The notes under the pieces are model-generated. The model made no database searches and was not told the DNA's origin. It saw only the letters and a list, made by a program, of their open reading frames with translations. A stretch of DNA of 64,000 nucleotides from Fidelibacterota bacterium. Its GTDB lineage: Bacteria; Fidelibacterota; UBA8477; JABMPR01. Location: contig JADHVL010000017.1 in assembly GCA_016784025.1 (NCBI GenBank), positions 4,892 to 68,891 on the forward strand, written 5' to 3'. Below are positions 33,948-45,159 of this stretch, piece by piece (the stretch's first letter is position 1; every line of letters begins with the position of its first letter). Both the position numbers and the translations under genes were made by a program.

Positions 33948-34448
33948 CTAAATCATCGCCAGCAGCTTATTCTTTTGTTTCTTGAACTCTTTTTCTGTAA
34001 TGAGTTGTCTGGAGTACATCTGGTGCAAAGCTTCGATTTGCCCAATCAGTTCTTCTGTAGTTGCTTCCTGGGCATCTGGATTCATGGACATACCAATACG
34101 ATTGAGTAGTGTCTTTTTGGCTCTTTCATAATTCTTTTCACTAATAACACCACGTGACATCATACGATTCAAGACAACAATATCTTCTGCCACACTTTCG
34201 GCTGTGATAGTAACCAGGTTAGTAGGATAAGTGGTGGTCGATATGGTGTTGACCATGGTAGGTCTATATGAGTAGCGATAATATCCATAAGCTGAATAGT
34301 AATTATTGTAATGGTAGGGGTAATATGAGGAATGATGGTTTCTGACAGGATGGTGATGATTTCTTCTTGAACGGGGGCCTGCCTGTAGCGTGACTGAAAG
34401 GATAAGTAGTAGGATAATAAGTTTGCTAAATTTCATAATGCACCTCAT
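33948..34448 (-). CDS. Secreted protein with His/Tyr-rich region and two SHOCT domains
   Basis: Signal peptide, low-complexity RRNHHHPVRNHHSSYYPYHYNNYYSAYGYYRYSYR, then two SHOCT-like modules (GVISEKNYERAKKTLLNRI and QLITEKEFKKQKNKLLAMI). Confidence 0.65.
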   Translation of the reverse strand: MRCIMKFSKLIILLLILSVTLQAGPRSRRNHHHPVRNHHSSYYPYHYNNYYSAYGYYRYSYRPTMVNTISTTTYPTNLVTITAESVAEDIVVLNRMMSRGVISEKNYERAKKTLLNRIGMSMNPDAQEATTEELIGQIEALHQMYSRQLITEKEFKKQKNKLLAMI

Positions 34449-34486
34449 TCTATTTATTCCCTTTGACCTTATAAGTTCCTGATTGG

Positions 34487-35296
34487 TTAATTTGTGGGTG
34501 ACTCAAGATTACTTTGATAAGCTCGACGGGCAATATGAGCCCCTCCCAGGGCACCCACAGTTTGTGGGTTTTCTGGAATATTCAAAGTCAGCCCCAGCTT
34601 TTCCTCCAACAATGCCACCAGACCCTTATTATGGGCAACACCACCAGTTAGTGTGACTTCGCCTTCAACACCAATTGATGTGACCATGCTCCAAATTCGG
34701 TTCACGATAGAACGCTGCAATCCATGTACGATTTCTTCACGAGGGGTGTTTTTGGCCAGGAGAGAAATGACTTCACTCTCGGCAAATACGGTACAGGTAC
34801 TGCTAATGGGTGCTGATTCGCCCTTGATATTCAAGGGGCTGCTCAATTCATCCAGGTCCAGTTCCAGACGGTTGGCCATGACTTCCAGAAAACGACCAGT
34901 CCCAGCAGCACATTTATCATTCATGGTGAAATCAAGCATGCGACCATGTGAATCGATTTGAATCACTTTGCTATCCTGACCACCAATATCTATCACCGTT
35001 CCTGTCCTGGGAAAGAGTTGATGTGCCCCGACACCATGGCAACTGATCTCAGTCGTTTTTCCAGTGGCAAAAGCCACTGAAGCACGTCCATAACCTGTAG
35101 CAGTGATTGCGGTGATGCCTTCCCTTGTTAGGTCGGCCAGGTTTAGAGCGGAACCAAAAGCCTCTTCAGCTGCCTCAGAACCATTCACGCCAGTAGGGAT
35201 TACAATTTCAGACAGGACTTTTCCTGAATGATCAATAATGGATACATCGGTGCTAAGGGAGCCTACATCTACACCGGCGAAATAGAGATCAGCCAT
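34487..35296 (-). CDS. 2-hydroxyacyl-CoA dehydratase / benzoyl-CoA reductase-type activase (BcrAD_BadFG ATPase)
   Basis: VDVGSLSTD, DIGGQDSKVI and NDKCAAGTGRFLE motifs. The ATG at 35296 overlaps the upstream stop by 8 nt; the track ORF extends to 35386. Confidence 0.9.
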   Translation of the reverse strand: MADLYFAGVDVGSLSTDVSIIDHSGKVLSEIVIPTGVNGSEAAEEAFGSALNLADLTREGITAITATGYGRASVAFATGKTTEISCHGVGAHQLFPRTGTVIDIGGQDSKVIQIDSHGRMLDFTMNDKCAAGTGRFLEVMANRLELDLDELSSPLNIKGESAPISSTCTVFAESEVISLLAKNTPREEIVHGLQRSIVNRIWSMVTSIGVEGEVTLTGGVAHNKGLVALLEEKLGLTLNIPENPQTVGALGGAHIARRAYQSNLESPTN

Positions 35297-36611
35297 GTTT
35301 TGATCCTTCCAGGGTTTCACAAAAGGCTTCAAGTCGAGTGTGGATCTGCTGCTCTGACCAGACCCGTTCATCGGCAATGTCCGCATCTAGAATAACGGCA
35401 GGCAGATCAAGATCAGCGGTGATGGTCTTGCGTAGATCAAATTGCCCTACTGAATAAGGTTTACAGCTCCGGGTTGAATGCATGACCATCCCATCCACTG
35501 AATAGGTTTTGATCATCTTTTTCATCAGATCAAGCCGGTGCTTCAAATTGTTATTCAAGATGATCTGTCCATAGGTTTTGGCCATGGAGGTCCAGGGATT
35601 TTTTACATCAAGATATCCTGTGGTTTCAGCCCAGGCATTGGTATAAGTAGCAGTCACAAAGTTCATTTTTCTCTCGGCAAAAAAAGTAGCCAGAAATCGG
35701 ACCTTATACCAGATGGCGATATTGTCCCAGATCAATCGGTAACGTTCATCACTGATAGCGCCAATTCCCTGAGTAACTCGCGTGTCAATCTCATCCATCA
35801 AAAAATGGTAGTAATCTTGGGCCACAGGTAACCCACGAAGGGATACGATGGGAGCAAGATGACCAAAGGCATCAAAGATGGTCATGGGTGCAGGTTGAGC
35901 TTTCATGGCATCCAGGATGGCACCCCAGGTCTTGGATGTCTCCATGGAGCGTTTGAGGATGTCTTCAAAAATATTGAGATAAAAGATCCGTCCTGATACC
36001 CGCTCAAGGATGGGAATCATATCCTGTAATTGCTGTGCCATGTAATTGATATCAGCTTCAGTCTGCTCTGTAGTGACAAAAGGAGCGTCAAAATGAATCA
36101 GGGGAATATTCAGCTCATGGGCGATGGCTTTATACCAGTAGAGGACGGTCTGACAGATATTGTTTGAACAAAACAACAGATCTGGTTTGGGAAGCTTCCC
36201 AGCAGGTGTTTTCCCAGACAGCATGTGTCCCAGATCGATACGGGCATAGGAACACAGATCCTGACTGAAGCCACTCCCTTCAGCGATTCCACAGTAATCA
36301 GCGCCTTGTTTTTTGGCTCCTACCAGGGCGGAATGATTCTCCGGATAAATGGTATAGAAATCAAAAGCCCGCAGGAGTTCGACGGGAGCCCCACTGGTGA
36401 CCCAGGCTACTTTTTTTACACCAGGGGTGTATCTGGAGAGGAAATAATGACGACTTAGAATTTCCTTAAGGCGCTTATTGGATTCCAGAGGTGGTCCGAA
36501 TGCCTCCGGAATGGGACGCGGTTTCCGCCTTTTGAAATCCTGAAGCACCATGAGAGCTGGAGCTCCATAATCTTTCATAATTTTATACTTTAATTCTGCT
36601 CTGATACTCAT
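35289..36611 (-). CDS. 2-hydroxyacyl-CoA dehydratase family (HGD-D) subunit
   Basis: 440 aa with conserved Cys contexts LCSYARID and HSTRSCKPYSVGQ, typical of the HgdA/HgdB/BcrBC family. Confidence 0.85.
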   Translation of the reverse strand: MSIRAELKYKIMKDYGAPALMVLQDFKRRKPRPIPEAFGPPLESNKRLKEILSRHYFLSRYTPGVKKVAWVTSGAPVELLRAFDFYTIYPENHSALVGAKKQGADYCGIAEGSGFSQDLCSYARIDLGHMLSGKTPAGKLPKPDLLFCSNNICQTVLYWYKAIAHELNIPLIHFDAPFVTTEQTEADINYMAQQLQDMIPILERVSGRIFYLNIFEDILKRSMETSKTWGAILDAMKAQPAPMTIFDAFGHLAPIVSLRGLPVAQDYYHFLMDEIDTRVTQGIGAISDERYRLIWDNIAIWYKVRFLATFFAERKMNFVTATYTNAWAETTGYLDVKNPWTSMAKTYGQIILNNNLKHRLDLMKKMIKTYSVDGMVMHSTRSCKPYSVGQFDLRKTITADLDLPAVILDADIADERVWSEQQIHTRLEAFCETLEGSKHG

Positions 36612-37765
36612 GCTGAAGCCATCTCAAATAGAATTTCAGTAAATGCTTCAATACGCGTTTTGTCTTGTCCTGAGATGTGGCTGTCCAGCTCTGTTTCCAG
36701 GGTTAAAACCGGAATATTTTTTTCCCGAAGCGTTTTCACCAGAAGACGATGATCGAATAACTCAGGCTCACAGAATTTTATCATATCAAAGAGCATTCCT
36801 TGAGCTTGACTTGCATCCATTAGTTTACTTAGATGGTGCAAGCGTTCATCCAGATCACCCCCGCGTGTTGAGCAAGGTGGCAAAACGAAGAATCGATCTG
36901 TTAAGTAATCCAGAGGTGAAACAGGGGTATCCATAGGAAACTTGGGGATGCGTCGGCTACCGGCAAGTAAATCATCTGCAACGATGCCAACCCCCAATTC
37001 ATCGAGAAACCTCAGTATCTCTGAAGTGGGTGGCAGGATGCCCGACACCATCAAGCGGGCTCTTGGAGATTCGGAGGGCTGATCCAAAATATCTACCTGC
37101 TCAAGCAAGCTCAAATAGTCAGAGGGGAGCAGGTACTCCTGAGCTCGCATGAGTTTGAAATAATCTAGATTATTCATGGCGAGGTGATCTGTCATGCGGG
37201 CTTGTTGGATTGCCAATAAATATGAATCGATTTTGTGACTCAACACGCAGGCAGCCAGGAGTTTCTCTGGATTTAGGGGTCCATAAATTGTTTCCAGGGT
37301 CAATTGGTAATTTTGGAGAATATCCCGGTAATATTTTGTGGTCATTTTGTTGAAACTACCCTTGGGATTGTAAAAGGTGTAAACAGGGAGGGACACACCA
37401 ATGAGATCCTTGACTTGAGTCCCCAGATTTTGCAGAGAATCACAGGTATGTGGGAAGAGATATCCTGCATTGATGATATCAGGTTCCTTGAGGATGAACT
37501 CCAGGCTTTTTTTTACAATGGGGCAAATGGTAGTCTGTAGATGTGCATTGGCGTGGAGTATTTCTCCAGGTGGATCCCAGATTTCAGTGGCATGGATATC
37601 AAAGGCCCAGAGCAGCTCTCGGGGATAGAGCGCAGGCAGGACACCCATGATTTTTTGCCCGGATTGAGCAAGGGTTTTGAGATATTCTGATCGGTCTGGT
37701 ATAGAGATGTTCATATTCTTGGTTATTTCATTGAAGGTGGTCTCATGCTTCGAGAACCTCAGCAT
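36608..37765 (-). CDS. 2-hydroxyacyl-CoA dehydratase family (HGD-D) subunit
   Basis: 385 aa with FPHTCDSLQNLG and IKFCEPELFD motifs of the HGD-D family. 4-nt overlap with the partner subunit. Confidence 0.85.
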   Translation of the reverse strand: MLRFSKHETTFNEITKNMNISIPDRSEYLKTLAQSGQKIMGVLPALYPRELLWAFDIHATEIWDPPGEILHANAHLQTTICPIVKKSLEFILKEPDIINAGYLFPHTCDSLQNLGTQVKDLIGVSLPVYTFYNPKGSFNKMTTKYYRDILQNYQLTLETIYGPLNPEKLLAACVLSHKIDSYLLAIQQARMTDHLAMNNLDYFKLMRAQEYLLPSDYLSLLEQVDILDQPSESPRARLMVSGILPPTSEILRFLDELGVGIVADDLLAGSRRIPKFPMDTPVSPLDYLTDRFFVLPPCSTRGGDLDERLHHLSKLMDASQAQGMLFDMIKFCEPELFDHRLLVKTLREKNIPVLTLETELDSHISGQDKTRIEAFTEILFEMASA

Positions 37766-37829
37766 GACGCAGGGTAAAAAGTTCGTCTCCCTGAGGCTCT
37801 CGAAGGGTTAATAGACCAATAGTCACCGA

Positions 37830-39215
37830 CTATTTCCTGAATTTGCGGACAAAACCTTCCACCTCAGGAACGCCACCTTGATAAACAAGGTAACCATTGT
37901 AGGGCTCTCTTTCAGTAATATCATCGTTAATAGGTGTGAGCATGATTTCTTTGATCTTTTTAGGATCGTCTGTCTGCCCCAGAGTCCAGCCCAATTTAAC
38001 CCAGGCAACTTCAGGGAGCATATTGCCAAGGGGAGTAACACCCAGAGCCATCATGTCCCGACCTGTATCATAAACGAACATGTGGGCATACCCCCAGATA
38101 GTCTGAAGGGTCATAAAGACAGAGACGCCCTTGTCTCTTGCCCTTTCAAGTGCAGGATACAATTCCCTGTTCACATGTCCAAGACCAGTTCCCACAATTA
38201 CAATTCCTTTGTACCCTGCATCTACCAGGGAATCTACAATGTCAGCCTGCATGTGAGGGTAGTAGTAGAGCATGGTAACCTTCTCATTGAACGTGGGAAC
38301 AATTTTTACAGTCTTGTCCTTCCGACGATGTTTGTATTCTGTTTTGATGATTTTGAGACCTTTACGAGTCACTGTCGCTGCAGGAGTATCACCAATAGTG
38401 CGAAAAGTAGATCGGTAGGAACTATGCATTTTCCGGACACGGGTGCCGCGATGCAGGAAGCCATATTCATCAGAGGTAGGACCAAACATACACACCAACG
38501 TTTCTGCAATATCACCATGCCCGGCAGCATAAGAGGCGTGGATCAAATTCAGGGCCGCATCTGAAGATGGCCTATCGGAGGAGCGTTGTGATCCCACAAG
38601 AATGATGGGGATGGGTGAATCCTGAACCATATAGGAAAGGGCTGCAGCCGTATGATGGAGGGTGTCTGTCCCATGACCGATCACAATACCATCTGTGCCG
38701 TTGGCGATTTCTTTGCCAATGCTTTCTGCCAGGATTTTGTACTGATCTGGCCCCATGTTTTCACTAAAAACCGCGAATAGTTTTTCAGTATCGATGTTGC
38801 AAATATCAGCCAATTCAGGGACAGCACCATACAACTCACCTGGAGAAAAAGCGGGGATGACGGCACCAGTCCGATAATCCAGACGGGAAGCAATAGTTCC
38901 ACCGGTTCCAAATAATTTCACATTGGGTTTATCATCTGAATAGGGGAAGGCTTTTTCGGGAATTTTGTAATTGGCTTTTTGATAGCCCGTTTCAACCATT
39001 ATTTTAATGGTCACAATATCGATTCCAATATTGTAGCCGGTTTGAATTTTCAATACGATATGCTGATCATCATCATTTTCTGAACGAGGGAGAACCGTGC
39101 CATCAAAGGTGCCCCTGGTGGTGTGGATTTCAGCTTGACCCCAGACTCTCACACTGAATTTCTTTAGTGTGGCGAGAGCATCCCCTTTATATCCTTGAAA
39201 AATGTCATCACTCAT
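37830..39215 (-). CDS. gatD: Glu-tRNA(Gln) amidotransferase subunit D (archaeal-type GatD)
   Basis: 461 aa. A GatD-type N-terminal domain is followed by an asparaginase-like domain with GTGGTIASR and GHGTDTLHHTA catalytic motifs. Confidence 0.85.
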   Translation of the reverse strand: MSDDIFQGYKGDALATLKKFSVRVWGQAEIHTTRGTFDGTVLPRSENDDDQHIVLKIQTGYNIGIDIVTIKIMVETGYQKANYKIPEKAFPYSDDKPNVKLFGTGGTIASRLDYRTGAVIPAFSPGELYGAVPELADICNIDTEKLFAVFSENMGPDQYKILAESIGKEIANGTDGIVIGHGTDTLHHTAAALSYMVQDSPIPIILVGSQRSSDRPSSDAALNLIHASYAAGHGDIAETLVCMFGPTSDEYGFLHRGTRVRKMHSSYRSTFRTIGDTPAATVTRKGLKIIKTEYKHRRKDKTVKIVPTFNEKVTMLYYYPHMQADIVDSLVDAGYKGIVIVGTGLGHVNRELYPALERARDKGVSVFMTLQTIWGYAHMFVYDTGRDMMALGVTPLGNMLPEVAWVKLGWTLGQTDDPKKIKEIMLTPINDDITEREPYNGYLVYQGGVPEVEGFVRKFRK

Positions 39216-41211
39216 GGGATTGATTCTCTTTTTTTAATTTCTGATCAATTTCAGCGTGCAACTCTGACAATGCCACATTTCCAATGGCCTGATGATGTAT
39301 CTGACCCATGAGCCAATTGATGTCATTACCCGTTTCAGGTTTTGGAGTATTTTCTTGATATTTTTCGTATAGAAATTCTATGGGAGCAGCAATTTCAGCC
39401 ATATCGCGTTTCCTGAAATGGATACTGGTGAGAACAGAGCTGAACTGCATGTCAGGAAATTCATATATCACTGGCATCATATATTTGGCAATGCCTGGTT
39501 CCAGCTTCTTCTCCTTGATATAACGGAAAAGCTCATAGATTTTTTCATAGAAGAAGTTTTTATGTAATTTACACTTGCCCTCAATGTTTTTGAAGGTATG
39601 CCCCAGAAAAGAACCAATAGTCTTATGAGTGAAGCCATGATCGCTACAAATATTTTCAATCAGGGGGATCATGTTTTTGCTCAGGAGATACTTCCAGGTG
39701 TCCTCAGGAATGCCCCACTTTTTCATCTGTGCATAACGATCAGCAATATCTGGAGGTAATTGTTTCCCAAGGCTATCGATGAACTCAACGGTCAAAGGGA
39801 TGGGCGCAGAATCTGTGTCGGGATACATGCGATCACTTCCTGGAAGCACCCTTTCAAAAATAGTGGTGCCATCTGGAAAAGATTTCCGCGTTTCTTCAGG
39901 AACACCGTCAAAAGCCATTCGGATTCGTTCTTCCACGGTTTCCATAGCGGTTGGGATGTCCTCTGCTGGTCCCCAGAGAATGATCTGAGCGTCGTTTTTC
40001 TTAGCTCCCAGCGACTTAGATATTTTGCCCAACTCCTCATCACTCAAGAGGGGATCAAAAGTTTCAGAATGGGTCATGTTGGGTCGTTCAATACAGGCAA
40101 TTACCTTCAGGCGATGACTTATCTCATGGGCAAAACTGTGCCCGGGTTGCATGAAGTGAGAAAGGATTCCCTTTAATTTCGGAAGATTAATTGATATGAC
40201 TTTCATCCTCTGATTCAGCTTTTCTCTGAGGGGAGTTGCCAGTAGCTCTGGCATGGATAAATCGATTTCCTTGTGACTCATTTTCCATGTGCCGGGCTGG
40301 ATACCACGTTCATGAATGAGCTTTTTAATGTGCAGCAGCGCCCATTGACGAAATGCTTCATTATGGGAGAGTTCAGGGATCCATTTGTTATGGGCGACAC
40401 CTTTTATCTCAACTCGGCTTCCACCTGCACAACTCACATTGACATCTTCGCGACCAGCACCCATACCCGTACGTACTTTACCAGTACTGCGATTCAAAAA
40501 TCGTATGTATTCTGCAGCTTCTGCCAGTTCATCAGGTGTGGTCATGTCAGGGTGGGTTACTGTTTCGATGAGAGGCATGCCGAGTCGATCGGTTTTGTAA
40601 ATTCGCTCATGGCCAATATCAGATATTTCACGACAGGAATCTTCCTCAATACTGAGTTGAATCAGACGCACTTTCTTATTTTTTAATTGAAGCTCACCCT
40701 CGACGCCAAGAATGGCTGTTCTTTGGAAACCTGTTGGAATACTGCCATCCAGGTATTGTTTACGGGTGATGTGGACTTCACCCACGATATTAAGCTTGGA
40801 GAGCAGTGAAATTTCAATAGCGATCTCCAATGCTTCCGGATCAATGTGAAAAGGGGGTGTGTCATCGACTTCATAGGTGCAAGCGTTCTGATTATTGAGT
40901 CGATAGGTAATGTTTTTGCGCGTCTTAAATTCCATGAGGGCAGTACCATCATACTCACCCAGTTCACTCAATGTGGGGCGCATATGACGGATAACTTCTG
41001 CGTCAAAATCATCATCAGAATGATAGATACCAGCAGGACAGCGACAAAATAGTTTACTCCTGGTTTTGAGCTGCTGATGGACTTCCAGACCTGACTTAAA
41101 ACCAATGCGCTTATAGTCACTTGGTTTGGCTTTTTGGCGCTCCACATACCCAATGGCTTTGCGGGTCGCCATGAAATTTTTTAATGCTTCAGCTTGTTTC
41201 ATCTTCACCAA
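39208..41211 (-). CDS. gatE: Glu-tRNA(Gln) amidotransferase subunit E (archaeal-type GatE)
   Basis: 667 aa. GFKSGLEVHQQL..SKLFCRCP, LDGSIPTGFQRTA, DRLGMPLIETVTHPD, MYPDTDSAPIP and a YqeY-like tail (NWLMGQI) are collinear with GatE. 8-nt overlap with gatD. Start uncertain: TTG 41211, GTG 41208 or ATG 41202. Confidence 0.85.
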   Translation of the reverse strand: MVKMKQAEALKNFMATRKAIGYVERQKAKPSDYKRIGFKSGLEVHQQLKTRSKLFCRCPAGIYHSDDDFDAEVIRHMRPTLSELGEYDGTALMEFKTRKNITYRLNNQNACTYEVDDTPPFHIDPEALEIAIEISLLSKLNIVGEVHITRKQYLDGSIPTGFQRTAILGVEGELQLKNKKVRLIQLSIEEDSCREISDIGHERIYKTDRLGMPLIETVTHPDMTTPDELAEAAEYIRFLNRSTGKVRTGMGAGREDVNVSCAGGSRVEIKGVAHNKWIPELSHNEAFRQWALLHIKKLIHERGIQPGTWKMSHKEIDLSMPELLATPLREKLNQRMKVISINLPKLKGILSHFMQPGHSFAHEISHRLKVIACIERPNMTHSETFDPLLSDEELGKISKSLGAKKNDAQIILWGPAEDIPTAMETVEERIRMAFDGVPEETRKSFPDGTTIFERVLPGSDRMYPDTDSAPIPLTVEFIDSLGKQLPPDIADRYAQMKKWGIPEDTWKYLLSKNMIPLIENICSDHGFTHKTIGSFLGHTFKNIEGKCKLHKNFFYEKIYELFRYIKEKKLEPGIAKYMMPVIYEFPDMQFSSVLTSIHFRKRDMAEIAAPIEFLYEKYQENTPKPETGNDINWLMGQIHHQAIGNVALSELHAEIDQKLKKENQSHE

Positions 41212-41436: not shown

Positions 41437-44400
41437 ATGACCGATCTAGAAAAAACTGAATCGACATCAGGCTATACCACCCGATTTATTAGCCTCATGA
41501 TACTAGTGCTTTTCCTGTGCTCGGGAATGACTGGTTTGTTGTATGAGGTGATTTGGTCCAGGATGATTGTCAAGGTGATTGGAGCCGCTCCATTTGCCAT
41601 TAGCATTGTGCTCACCGTATTCATGGGGGGCCTGGGACTAGGGAGCTATCTGGCAGGAAAATATATTGATCAGATAAAAAAATCCTCGCAACTACTTCAA
41701 CTTTACGGTCTCATGGAAATTGGGATTGGTATATACGCTTTTATGCTAAAAGGAGTGATAGCAGCGAGTCAGCCAATATTTAGCTCTATCTACAACCAGT
41801 CATCAGAGCATCTATTGATTTTCAATGCTGTCATTCTACTGGGAGCATTTGTTCTATTCATCGTCCCCGTGACACTTATGGGCGCCACCTTGCCAATTCT
41901 AATTCGATTTTATGTGGCCAATTTAGGTCACCTCGGAGCCCGGGTTGGTCGACTATATGCCATCAATACAATTGGCGCTGCTGTTGGCTCAATTCTAAGT
42001 GGATTTTTATTGATAAAATTGTGGGGTGTTGATGGTACTCTTCGATTTGCAGTTGTCATAAATTTTCTAATCGGTGGCATCTCATTTGTCCTGGCCAATT
42101 GGGTAGCCAAGCGTTCTGCTCTGGATGAGCAAAATGCCGACAGACATAATGTTGAAGTATCACAACCTGCAGTTGGTATTCAGTATTCCCGTCCTCACCA
42201 GCTGGCCGTACTGGCTATATTTGCTGTTTCTGGATATGCCGCCATGGCCTATGAGGTGATCTGGACAAGATTGTTGGGTCTCATCATTGGACCGACGACG
42301 TATTCCTTCACCATTGTGCTGACTACCTTTATTGTAGGTCTAGCCCTGGGAGCCATGTTCTTTGGATGGCTGGCGGACCGAAGCAAACATCCTTTCCGAC
42401 TCCTGCTTATCACCCAGATGAGTGCAGCTATTCTGGCCCTTGCAGTAAGTCAGTTTTTGGGTAATAGTCAATTTTTCTTCGCCAAGCTGATCTTCAGTTT
42501 CAGAGATGATTTTGTCATGCTCTCCATAGCCAAGGCGACGCTATTATTCTTTTTGCTACTGGGTCCAACCCTTGCGCTGGGAGCCACATTTCCCCTGGTA
42601 GGTAAGATCTACACCAGTTCCATTCGGAAACTGGGCAAGTCCATTGGATTTGCATATGCTATCAATACCATTGGTGCATTACTGGGGGCCTTCTCGGCTG
42701 GTTTTGTTCTGATTCCCCTGTTCGGCAAGGAAAACAGCCTGAGCCTGGTCATCGGTATTCAATTGCTTACCGTCCTGGCTATCGTTGGTCTTCTCTATCC
42801 CAAGGGCGAAAACTCCCGAATCAGACTCATTCTTTTAATTTCTGGAATCCTTGGTCTGCTCCTCACTTTTGCATTCCCCCATTGGGATAGAGAACAATTA
42901 GCGACAGGGAAATATTATAGATTTAGCAGCTATGCTGATATCATAAAAAACACTAGCTGGTGGGATGCCCTGGTGAAGATGCCCAGGGATTTCATGCCCA
43001 ATATCAGTGGCACAGAGGTGGTCTTTTATGGGGATGGCATAGGTGGTTTTACAACAGTGGAGCAGGATATTGACCCACTTGGAAAGCCACAATATGTTCT
43101 ATATAATAGCGGTAAGGCCGACGCGTCTTCAGAATCGGATATGGCTACTCAAACCATGCTGGCTCATCTGCCACTATTGTTTCACCCTCAACCCAAAAAT
43201 GTAATGATTCTAGGCTTGGCCAGTGGGGTTACGGCAGGAGAAGCAATTTATTATGATTTAGATCGGCTGGATATTCTAGAAATTAGTGAACAGGTCGTAG
43301 AAGCCAGTGATTTTTTTAGCGAAACGAATAGTGATGTACTTTCACATCCCGCCACAAATTTGATAATCCAGGATGGTAGAGCCCATCTGGAATTGACGGA
43401 GCAAGTATATGATGTCATTACTTCAGAGCCATCCAATCCGTGGATGGCTGGACTGGCGAACTTATTTACTGAAGAGTTCTTCAGGCTAACCAAAAACAGA
43501 CTGAGCTGGGATGGTGTATTTATTCAGTGGTTGCCATCCTACCAGATGGATTGGACCACATTCTCAATGATAGGAAGAACTTTCACCAAGGTTTTTCCCA
43601 ATAGCTTATTGATGAAGTCATTTCTTGGTGGAAATGATTACTTATTGGTGGGCTTTAATGGCCTGAAACAACTTGACCTTAAAAATGGGCTTAAAAATTT
43701 GCCCAAGCTTCAAAAATCTCCCAATCTCATTGTAGAAGATCCCAGGATATTGTACCGACTCATTGTAAGTGATAATCTACCTGCTTTGTTTGGTTCAGGA
43801 CCAGGACACACTGATGATCACCCCATTCTTGAATTTATGGCACCACAACGAATGCATTTGGTAGATAAAACCGTGGAGAAAACTCTGGCGGAAAGACGAA
43901 CCCTCAGTGATGAGATTATTGAAGTCATGCGGGAAGTCCTTGATGTAGATGGACAGCTCAAATTTGCCAGGTTTATGCTTTCTGTTTATTCCCCCTTTCC
44001 AGATATGGTTGATTTATCCGCCGCAACAGAGGAGCAAAAAGTTGAGTATATCGAGATGTTAATGGAATATGGTAAAAATAACGCGGTTCAGGATTACGAC
44101 ATGTTTGAAAGCACGGGTTTGAGAGATACTGTGATTCAAACACAAATAGCTCAACTTACTCAAAAATTACCAAGTCTCCCGAATCGACTTGCTTCCTTTT
44201 TCATCCTGGCCAATGCTCACGCTGAGTTGGGAGATTTCGATGAGGCTATCAAATATTGTCGGCAAATCATTGAAATGGGCAGTGATCCCATTGAGGCAAA
44301 TCTCAATTTAGGTTTGTTTTGTATGAATGCTGGACGGAATGAAGAAGCAATCGCTGCCTACAATACCGTCTTGGAGCTGGATCCTGAACACAGTCATGCT

Positions 44401-45159
44401 CACAATAATCTGGGGACACTTTTCGAGCAGGCTGGGGAGACAAAAAATGCGAAAACTTCCTATGAACAAGCTGTTCTCATTGATCCAGATCTGGCAATAG
44501 CCCATTTCAATCTGGGTCGCTTACATATGAGCTCAGGGGCTGTGGATTCAGCAATGCTTGCCTATGCTATCGTGCTGAAATTGGACCCTGAATACATTCC
44601 TGCTTATTATCGGATCAGCCAAATCTATCAACTTTCAGGAGATTATGAAAAGGCCATTGCCATCATGGAAGCCCTTCTCAAAATTCGTCCTGATTTAAAA
44701 GAAGCCCAGGTTGAAATAAAAAATCTCACCGTGCGAATGGAACAGAAACAGGAACCACCGAAGGTATCCGTTCAGATGCCCCCTCGTACAGCAAAATCAG
44801 ACAAAAGTACGGATCCCAGATATTTTTATAACCAGGCTGTCATGTTGATTCAGAAGCAAAAATATAGAGAAGCGATGGTTGATTTTGAACGGGCACTTTC
44901 TTTAAAACCAGACTACCTGAACGCTATCATTGGACTTGGAGCCATGTATCAGAACCTGAGTGAGTATGATGCTGCAATCAGCCAGTATAAGCGAGCCCTG
45001 GTTATTGATCCAAATCATAGCGGGACCCACAATAACATAGCCATCAATTATTATACGGTGCGAAAATATAAATTGGCCATTGAACATGCCGATAGGGCCA
45101 AAGCATTGGGTTTTAATGTTCAACAGGCCTTTTTGGATGAATTATCAAAGTATCGATAG
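41437..45159 (+). CDS. Fused polytopic membrane / spermidine-synthase-like / TPR-repeat protein
   Basis: 1240 aa: about 14 N-terminal TM helices, an aminopropyl/methyltransferase-like core (ILGLASGVTAGEA, DVITSEPSNPW), then multiple TPR repeats (...AYNTVLELDPEHSHAHNNLG...). Confidence 0.8.
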   Translation: MTDLEKTESTSGYTTRFISLMILVLFLCSGMTGLLYEVIWSRMIVKVIGAAPFAISIVLTVFMGGLGLGSYLAGKYIDQIKKSSQLLQLYGLMEIGIGIYAFMLKGVIAASQPIFSSIYNQSSEHLLIFNAVILLGAFVLFIVPVTLMGATLPILIRFYVANLGHLGARVGRLYAINTIGAAVGSILSGFLLIKLWGVDGTLRFAVVINFLIGGISFVLANWVAKRSALDEQNADRHNVEVSQPAVGIQYSRPHQLAVLAIFAVSGYAAMAYEVIWTRLLGLIIGPTTYSFTIVLTTFIVGLALGAMFFGWLADRSKHPFRLLLITQMSAAILALAVSQFLGNSQFFFAKLIFSFRDDFVMLSIAKATLLFFLLLGPTLALGATFPLVGKIYTSSIRKLGKSIGFAYAINTIGALLGAFSAGFVLIPLFGKENSLSLVIGIQLLTVLAIVGLLYPKGENSRIRLILLISGILGLLLTFAFPHWDREQLATGKYYRFSSYADIIKNTSWWDALVKMPRDFMPNISGTEVVFYGDGIGGFTTVEQDIDPLGKPQYVLYNSGKADASSESDMATQTMLAHLPLLFHPQPKNVMILGLASGVTAGEAIYYDLDRLDILEISEQVVEASDFFSETNSDVLSHPATNLIIQDGRAHLELTEQVYDVITSEPSNPWMAGLANLFTEEFFRLTKNRLSWDGVFIQWLPSYQMDWTTFSMIGRTFTKVFPNSLLMKSFLGGNDYLLVGFNGLKQLDLKNGLKNLPKLQKSPNLIVEDPRILYRLIVSDNLPALFGSGPGHTDDHPILEFMAPQRMHLVDKTVEKTLAERRTLSDEIIEVMREVLDVDGQLKFARFMLSVYSPFPDMVDLSAATEEQKVEYIEMLMEYGKNNAVQDYDMFESTGLRDTVIQTQIAQLTQKLPSLPNRLASFFILANAHAELGDFDEAIKYCRQIIEMGSDPIEANLNLGLFCMNAGRNEEAIAAYNTVLELDPEHSHAHNNLGTLFEQAGETKNAKTSYEQAVLIDPDLAIAHFNLGRLHMSSGAVDSAMLAYAIVLKLDPEYIPAYYRISQIYQLSGDYEKAIAIMEALLKIRPDLKEAQVEIKNLTVRMEQKQEPPKVSVQMPPRTAKSDKSTDPRYFYNQAVMLIQKQKYREAMVDFERALSLKPDYLNAIIGLGAMYQNLSEYDAAISQYKRALVIDPNHSGTHNNIAINYYTVRKYKLAIEHADRAKALGFNVQQAFLDELSKYR

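Follow-up and report, generated by a model that had tools for sequence, protein, structure and literature searches.

An archaeal-type gatE-gatD pair beside a HadBC-type radical enzyme module in one SAR406 genus: very probably a chance juxtaposition of two unrelated modules

We analyzed a 64,000-nucleotide stretch of DNA (hereafter the window) from a Fidelibacterota bacterium (Candidatus Neomarinimicrobiota, marine SAR406; assembly of 3.5 Mb, 86% complete), in which a string of six minus-strand genes joins gatE and gatD, the subunits of an archaeal-type tRNA-dependent amidotransferase, to two HGD-D subunits, their activase and a SHOCT protein. This string very likely consists of two unrelated modules that stand side by side in a lineage-specific juxtaposition; because the gene sets of both modules were seen together only in a single genus, a fortuitous gene order, and not a new pathway, is the best reading. 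Module A is gatE-gatD, which belongs to a bacterial lineage of the archaeal-type Glu-tRNA(Gln) amidotransferase, and module B a HadBC/HadI-type enzyme with an alpha-like and a beta-like HGD-D subunit and one [4Fe-4S] activase. Under this reading, a laterally gained gatED landed upstream of an orphan HadBC-type module, and a plastic spacer carrying a repetitive extragenic palindromic (REP)-like element divides the two, although in the host species transcription of gatED may continue into module B.

The open reading frame listing and family scans place all six co-directional genes where a first-pass annotation of this DNA had put them, and family-profile scans bear out the identities that it assigned. 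With the start codons that it used, its overlaps of 8, 4 and 8 nt and its gaps of 64 and 38 nt come out correctly. In gene order, starting from gatE, with S1 and S2 denoting HGD-D subunits 1 and 2 and the trio denoting S1-S2-activase, the genes are:

39208-41211, minus strand, gatE: GatE-type kinase/transamidase subunit of a bacterial-clade GatDE; start ambiguous between TTG 41211, GTG 41208 and ATG 41202
37830-39215, minus strand, gatD: asparaginase-type glutaminase subunit; 8-nt overlap with gatE
36608-37714 (first ATG 37765), minus strand, S1: HGD-D subunit 1, HadC-like beta subunit; PF06050 176 bits; 4-nt overlap with S2
35289-36611, minus strand, S2: HGD-D subunit 2, HadB-like alpha subunit; PF06050 228 bits
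34487-35296, minus strand, activase: ATP-dependent [4Fe-4S] activase of the HgdC/HadI type (BcrAD/BadFG); TIGR00241 260 bits; 8-nt overlap with S2
33948-34448, minus strand, SHOCT protein: 166 amino acids, His/Tyr-rich with a hydrophobic N-terminus; SHOCT 31.9 bits, SHOCT_2 27.7 bits; 38 nt downstream of the activase gene

The adjacency of gatDE and HGD-D genes was surveyed from both sides (loci and genomes carry L and G numbers, respectively). The gatD survey took the best 80 loci, with fetched flanks of up to 8 kb, and comprised 11 sister loci and 69 further gatE-gatD loci, which derive mostly from Bacteroidales metagenome-assembled genomes (MAGs), with Marinifilum fragile, M. breve and a few other labels; the survey of the trio covered 64 loci outside the genus (S2 identity 51-64%), the majority from MAGs of Fidelibacterota and Desulfobacterota and a few under other labels. 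S1, S2, activase and SHOCT genes were absent from the fetched flanks of all 69 Bacteroidota-type gatED loci and from the gatED loci of other Fidelibacterota families (0/5), and neither gatD nor gatE occurs in any of the 64 trio loci. Genome-wide, an S2 query that does recover its targets within the genus found no homologue in five gatDE-bearing Bacteroidales genomes (0/5) or in the gatD-bearing Fidelibacterota genomes outside the genus (0/11). Conservation of the neighborhood in relatives, on which the first-pass annotation had let its proposal depend, fails outside the genus (0/69 and 0/64 loci, 0/16 genomes), and no paper linking gatDE to HGD-D proteins was found in the literature.

S1-S2 persist in two species of the genus, G004 and G007, whose assemblies contain no gatD and whose genes upstream of S1-S2 are different. 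In G004, S1-S2 are preceded by genes for an alpha/beta hydrolase, a beta-eliminating lyase and an S8 peptidase, and followed by the activase, SHOCT and DUF6544 genes, while the G007 contig ends within S2. These gatDE-less species lie, with weak support, inside the genus clade of the S2 tree, which suggests a secondary loss of gatED.

A true functional coupling, in which the GatDE-like pair would provide ammonia or an amidation step for a compound that the radical enzyme consumes or makes, or in which the two would form a complex, is very improbable in light of these data. Co-directional adjacency and conservation within one genus speak for it, and nothing else does. Against it, the modules never occur together outside the genus, searched from both sides; two genus members keep the dehydratase genes without gatDE; and GatD and GatE retain the motifs of the tRNA-dependent enzyme, while Bacteroidales copies (77-85% identical in GatD, 60-69% in GatE) lie without an HGD-D gene. 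Nothing indicates a shared substrate, a complex or an ammonia channel between GatDE and the HGD-D enzyme. The pairing of an amidotransferase with a radical dehydratase or reductase that had been suggested from the window alone is contradicted by an adjacency that is restricted to the genus and dispensable within it; the distribution evidence favors the fall-back offered with that suggestion, operon packing of unrelated functions. A tempting false lead is thereby removed, since gene adjacency in a single genus is not pathway evidence and every wider comparison fails here.

The two modules also differ in their relatives. GatD of the genus is 77-85% identical to GatD in the 69 Bacteroidota-type loci, and GatE 60-69%. 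In trees rooted with two archaeal GatD sequences, whose letters were taken from structure-database alignments, GatD of the genus is nested deep within Bacteroidota, behind several nodes with support of at least 95/80, whereas GatD of three other Fidelibacterota families (64-72% identity) forms the basal branches of the bacterial clade, below every Bacteroidota copy. Because it is nested inside Bacteroidota, the genus copy indicates lateral acquisition, with the ancestor of one Fidelibacterota genus gaining gatED from a Bacteroidales-like donor; this would provide an example of bacterial GatDE transfer between phyla, from Bacteroidota to one SAR406 genus. The first-pass annotation had missed both this arrival and the bacterial context of the genes, a host with glutaminyl-tRNA synthetase (GlnRS) and asparaginyl-tRNA synthetase (AsnRS). 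gatD scores above the curated cut-off in eight of 151 evenly sampled Bacteroidota (~5%), and in a 201-genome Fidelibacterota sample it is found in the host genus and three other families (9/30, 1/5 and 1/1 genomes). The 11 genomes of these other families with a divergent gatE-gatD are G220, G241, G244, G265, G268, G274, G277, G280, G283, G305 and G348 (loci L173-L177), and the basal position of their GatD may bear on the first origin of bacterial GatDE.

Bacteroidales GatDE, for example that of Marinifilum fragile and M. breve (L083, L089), resembles the genus copy in gatE-gatD order and coupling, in sequence identity, with the genus copy nesting in the Bacteroidales clade, and in the presence of GlnRS alongside (5/5 gatDE-bearing Bacteroidales genomes). 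Its surroundings differ, with a recurrent neighborhood of their own near ftsZ-, ftsA- and ftsQ-like genes and without HGD-D, whereas gatED of the host stands upstream of the dehydratase trio. The genes of that neighborhood were named by eye with no family search, and read as a LolE/FtsX-like permease (the polytopic membrane gene upstream of gatED), a NUDIX hydrolase (the short gene downstream) and the FtsZ-, FtsA- and FtsQ-like proteins beyond.

These different relatives also bear on whether gatED, the trio and the SHOCT gene arrived together as one transferred island, which we regard as extremely unlikely. The region around the block is variable, as an island would have it: the gene for a 1240-amino-acid protein upstream of gatE is present in just 10 of 23 genus genomes, and three genus genomes have neither module. 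In a genus-wide search for the flanking genes, the flanks proved variable and missing from the genomes without both modules, so that no clean empty site was obtained. Against a single island, the nearest GatD relatives are from Bacteroidales, where none of the five checked genomes has an S2 homologue, and the nearest S2 relatives are from other Fidelibacterota and Desulfobacterota without gatDE; moreover, GC content stays level across the six-gene string with no step, and no tRNA gene is present in the window. The divergent 1240-amino-acid neighbor itself (window 41437-45159) combines a major facilitator superfamily-like membrane domain, a spermidine-synthase-like domain and tetratricopeptide repeats.

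Some of the surveyed records call for caution over their labels (L016, L019, L101, L107 and L039). Genes in records named 'uncultured Lentisphaeria bacterium' are 83-97% identical to those of Neomarinimicrobiota (S2 83-94%, GatD 94-97%) and group with them, and a 'Chlorobiota' MAG contig has a Bacteroidales-type GatD; these records look mislabelled or mis-binned.

The boundary between the modules lies in the spacer between gatD and S1. The first-pass annotation saw no convincing hairpin there, which is wrong: the spacer folds into a 15-bp stem, and the predicted fold of 37714-37835 has a free energy of -44.4 kcal/mol (z = -6.0), with none of 200 shuffles as stable. Two elements are present:

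37739-37817, minus strand, REP-like palindromic element; in its main stem of 15 bp, 37791-37805 pairs with 37748-37762
37818-37834, minus strand, second hairpin of 7 bp, which begins inside the gatD stop codon

The left arm of the palindrome, CCCTTCGAGAGCCTCAGGGAGAC, has 29 copies in the genome at no more than three mismatches, one of them in the window, and many with the matching right arm, CTGAGGYTCTCGAAG (for example at C22:6171, C8:129554 and C25:39098); it is because of this dispersal that the palindrome is considered REP-like. Related palindromes occupy the same spacer in sister loci L013, L016 and L017, and the L016 spacer also holds an IS200-like Y1 transposase gene (PF01797, 81 bits), possibly a REP-associated tyrosine transposase (RAYT). 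Similarly to REP elements with RAYT transposases, the element is an imperfect, dispersed palindrome of ~60-80 nt in tens of copies, with a Y1_Tnp gene in the orthologous spacer of a sister species, but here the REP family is an uncharacterised one in the phylum. This adds to the description of Fidelibacterota a family of REP-like repeats and a Y1 transposase associated with it.

The palindrome also affects the start of S1. The 3' arm of the hairpin directly adjoins the ATG at 37765 and supplies codons 2-6. In seven of ten sister loci the reading frame does not continue upstream and sequence conservation sets in at residue 20-22; in an eighth it sets in at residue 10. Since most sister frames are closed upstream and conservation begins downstream of the 37765 ATG, the true start of S1 is probably the ATG at 37714 (MNISIPDRSEYLK), a correction to the first HGD-D gene. 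The spacer of 64 nt given previously is right for ATG 37765; with the start at 37714 it becomes 115 nt, which is the more probable length. Across the genus this spacer is hypervariable (41-974 nt), and in several sister loci it is long and rich in A and T. Inside each module, neighboring genes overlap by 4-8 nt in the host and in relatives, while between the modules there is never any overlap.

Transcription of the string we infer from the spacer itself. No T run follows the hairpin, and therefore no canonical intrinsic terminator is present. Pattern scans found no sigma-70-like or terminator-like sites in the spacer, and fewer in the scan than in shuffles, which makes such scans uninformative for this phylum; likewise, the regions upstream of host-genome genes show no enrichment of the Bacteroidetes -7 motif TAnnTTTG, which is therefore unusable as a promoter rule here. 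REP elements occur inside operons in other bacteria. Co-transcription of gatD and S1, with the REP hairpin read through, is plausible in the host species, because the spacer is short (115 nt), with no canonical terminator and no recognisable promoter.

This plausible co-transcription is one of several points that weigh against reading the string as an accident of gene order. The order gatE-gatD-S1-S2 is found in 10 of the 11 sister loci (GatD identity 90-99%). Among the other 22 genomes of the genus, the 16 that have gatD all have S2 and none has gatD without S2; in 14 of these 16 the two genes are on one contig, 1.2-2.1 kb apart, and the block from gatED to the trio holds together though its upstream flank changes. 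Shared descent explains this co-occurrence within the genus, and selection for linkage would yield the same pattern.

Such selection could act on expression without any shared chemistry, if gatED joined the dehydratase transcription unit and both were wanted under the same conditions, for example when peptides or amino acids are fermented without oxygen and amide nitrogen is in excess. We consider this unlikely. The short host spacer, with neither a T-tract terminator nor a clear promoter, is consistent with it, as is a block kept on single contigs in 14 genus genomes despite shifting upstream flanks. A spacer with lengths between 41 and 974 nt, which can accommodate a transposase gene, argues the other way, however; the long, AT-rich sister spacers leave room for a separate S1 promoter, and two species keep S1-S2 without gatDE, one of them showing the whole trio. 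The more specific proposal that, in this SAR406 genus, the dehydratase operon has captured GatDE and a single regulated mRNA extends across the REP hairpin is quite improbable. If true, it would mean that an 'archaeal' tRNA-amidation enzyme is expressed specifically in anoxic amino-acid fermentation despite the presence of GlnRS, and it would give bacterial GatDE a conditional, non-housekeeping role, such as the rescue of mischarged Glu-tRNA(Gln) or the handling of amide nitrogen.

Taken as two unrelated modules, each set of genes can be described in its own right. Both subunits of module A are assigned with curated families: gatD scores 482 bits against TIGR02153 (cut-off 324) and 483 bits against NF003217 (cut-off 310), while gatE scores 392 bits against TIGR00134 (cut-off 320) and 466 bits against NF003107 (cut-off 456, a marginal pass). 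GatD matches 2d6f_A (E 2.8e-111) and 1zq1_A (E 1e-107), and in alignment with both it keeps the TGGTIAS, HGTDT and VRKMH stretches with the nucleophile Thr, the Thr-Asp pair and the Lys, whose catalytic roles have been described (PMC2330236). GatE matches 2d6f_C (E 1.1e-87), with the GLEVHQQL, EED and VEIKGV stretches aligned, and the partner chain of 1ZQ1 (E 1e-81); its C-terminal part matches the solved archaeal chains weakly. By these features the GatDE enzyme of the host looks intact. From homology we infer its chemistry, in which GatD would release ammonia from Gln or Asn, and GatE would phosphorylate and then amidate tRNA-bound Glu.

Compared with archaeal GatDE (Methanothermobacter thermautotrophicus, 2D6F; Pyrococcus abyssi, 1ZQ1), the host system likewise consists of two adjacent, overlapping genes whose products align near full length and above NCBIfam equivalog cut-offs, with the GatD Thr, Thr-Asp and Lys motifs and the conserved GatE core stretches present. 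The setting is different, as the classical one is an archaeon lacking GlnRS, whereas here the host is a bacterium; in addition, the bacterial sequences form a clade of their own on a long branch. Profile searches of the host genome recovered a full-length GlnRS (760 bits), an AsnRS (493 bits) and single copies of gatD and gatE, with no match to gatA or gatB (GatCAB) in the 86%-complete assembly. A bacterial host with GlnRS and AsnRS but without gatA and gatB therefore holds GatDE in a cell with no obvious need for it, and because both synthetases are present and GatCAB was not found, the role of GatDE in the host cell is predicted to be accessory. The host tRNA(Gln) differs as well. Archaeal GatDE reads A1-U72, whereas in both tRNA(Gln) genes of the host (anticodons CTG and TTG) U1 pairs with A72, the bacterial type. 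A 2021 review describes GatDE as restricted to archaea, and our literature search found no paper on bacterial GatDE. The coexistence of an intact archaeal-type GatDE (window 37830-41211) with GlnRS and AsnRS, and without GatCAB, is an observation of its own (own-genome positions C9:107664-109238 and C45:35537-36808).

Module B encodes a pair of paralogous HGD-D subunits from neighboring genes. S2 matches 3o3m_A, the alpha chain of 2-hydroxyisocaproyl-CoA dehydratase (E 1.6e-64; DLCSYAR, NNICQ and RSCK stretches aligned), and S1 matches 3o3m_B, the beta chain (E 9.7e-22). Compared stretch by stretch, the Cys-containing parts of S1 and S2, which may hold the ligands for one [4Fe-4S] cluster per subunit, align with those of HadC and HadB. 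The activase matches 9gai_D (E 9.5e-66), 4eht_A (E 5e-61) and 1hux_A (E 1.5e-56), with MbdQ, HadI and HgdC among the matches; it is a single ASKHA ATPase that keeps both Cys-containing stretches, NDKCAAGTGRF and TCTVFAE. By analogy, the activase would inject one electron, allowing a 2-hydroxyacyl thioester to be dehydrated through a ketyl radical, most likely in a setting of amino-acid fermentation.

The closest characterized system is HadBC with HadI of Clostridioides difficile (3O3M, 4EHT), the top structural-database match for S1 and S2, which shares the combination of an alpha-like and a beta-like HGD-D subunit with one HgdC-type ATPase, the overlapping genes and the Cys-containing stretches. 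The host proteins nevertheless score far below the HadB/HadC equivalog level (284 bits for S2 against NF052455, cut-off 750; 100 bits against NF052456, cut-off 700), and no CoA-transferase or 2-hydroxyacid dehydrogenase gene is adjacent. The family III CoA-transferase profile (PF02515) had no match in the 86%-complete host genome, other CoA-transferase families not having been searched. S2 and the activase also strongly match MbdO/BzdO and MbdQ of the class I benzoyl-CoA reductases Bzd and Mbd (8S02, 9G87/9GAI). Those enzymes, however, have two distinct ATPase subunits, whereas the single ATPase gene here fits a dehydratase architecture rather than a class I benzoyl-CoA reductase, and no ring-pathway genes are nearby.

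Outside the genus, the order S1-S2(-activase) recurs, equally tight, in the 64 trio loci, and the nearest S2 relatives belong to other Fidelibacterota and to Desulfobacterota. No consistent neighbors of the trio were found across these 64 loci; as read by eye, an aminotransferase-like gene follows the trio in 11 of them and an acyl-CoA-dehydrogenase-like gene is nearby in four, which is suggestive. Judged by sequence, the trio is an orphan HadBC-type radical enzyme lineage common to SAR406 and sulfate-reducer MAGs. A search for literature on uncharacterised 2-hydroxyacyl-CoA dehydratase modules returned nothing relevant, and this analysis places a further lineage of this type on record.

The SHOCT protein that ends the string contains two SHOCT-like modules within its 166 amino acids and is probably exported. 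Its gene follows the trio in members of the genus, including the gatDE-less G004, and is absent from all 64 trio loci outside the genus.

Two further gene contexts touch on the trio. A subset of Desulfobacterota (L112, L116, L121, L126, L129, L150, L153, L154 and others) has the trio between a conserved upstream set, read by eye as CobU-like, metallo-beta-lactamase-fold, M20 peptidase and acyltransferase genes, and a downstream aminotransferase-like gene, which offers a possible handle on the substrate. In the G004 locus (L093, G004:C8, 4303-8231), the beta-eliminating lyase belongs to the tryptophanase/tyrosine phenol-lyase family, and the S8 peptidase carries a type IX secretion system sorting tail, its stop codon overlapping the start of S1; this context of the trio hints at amino-acid catabolism.

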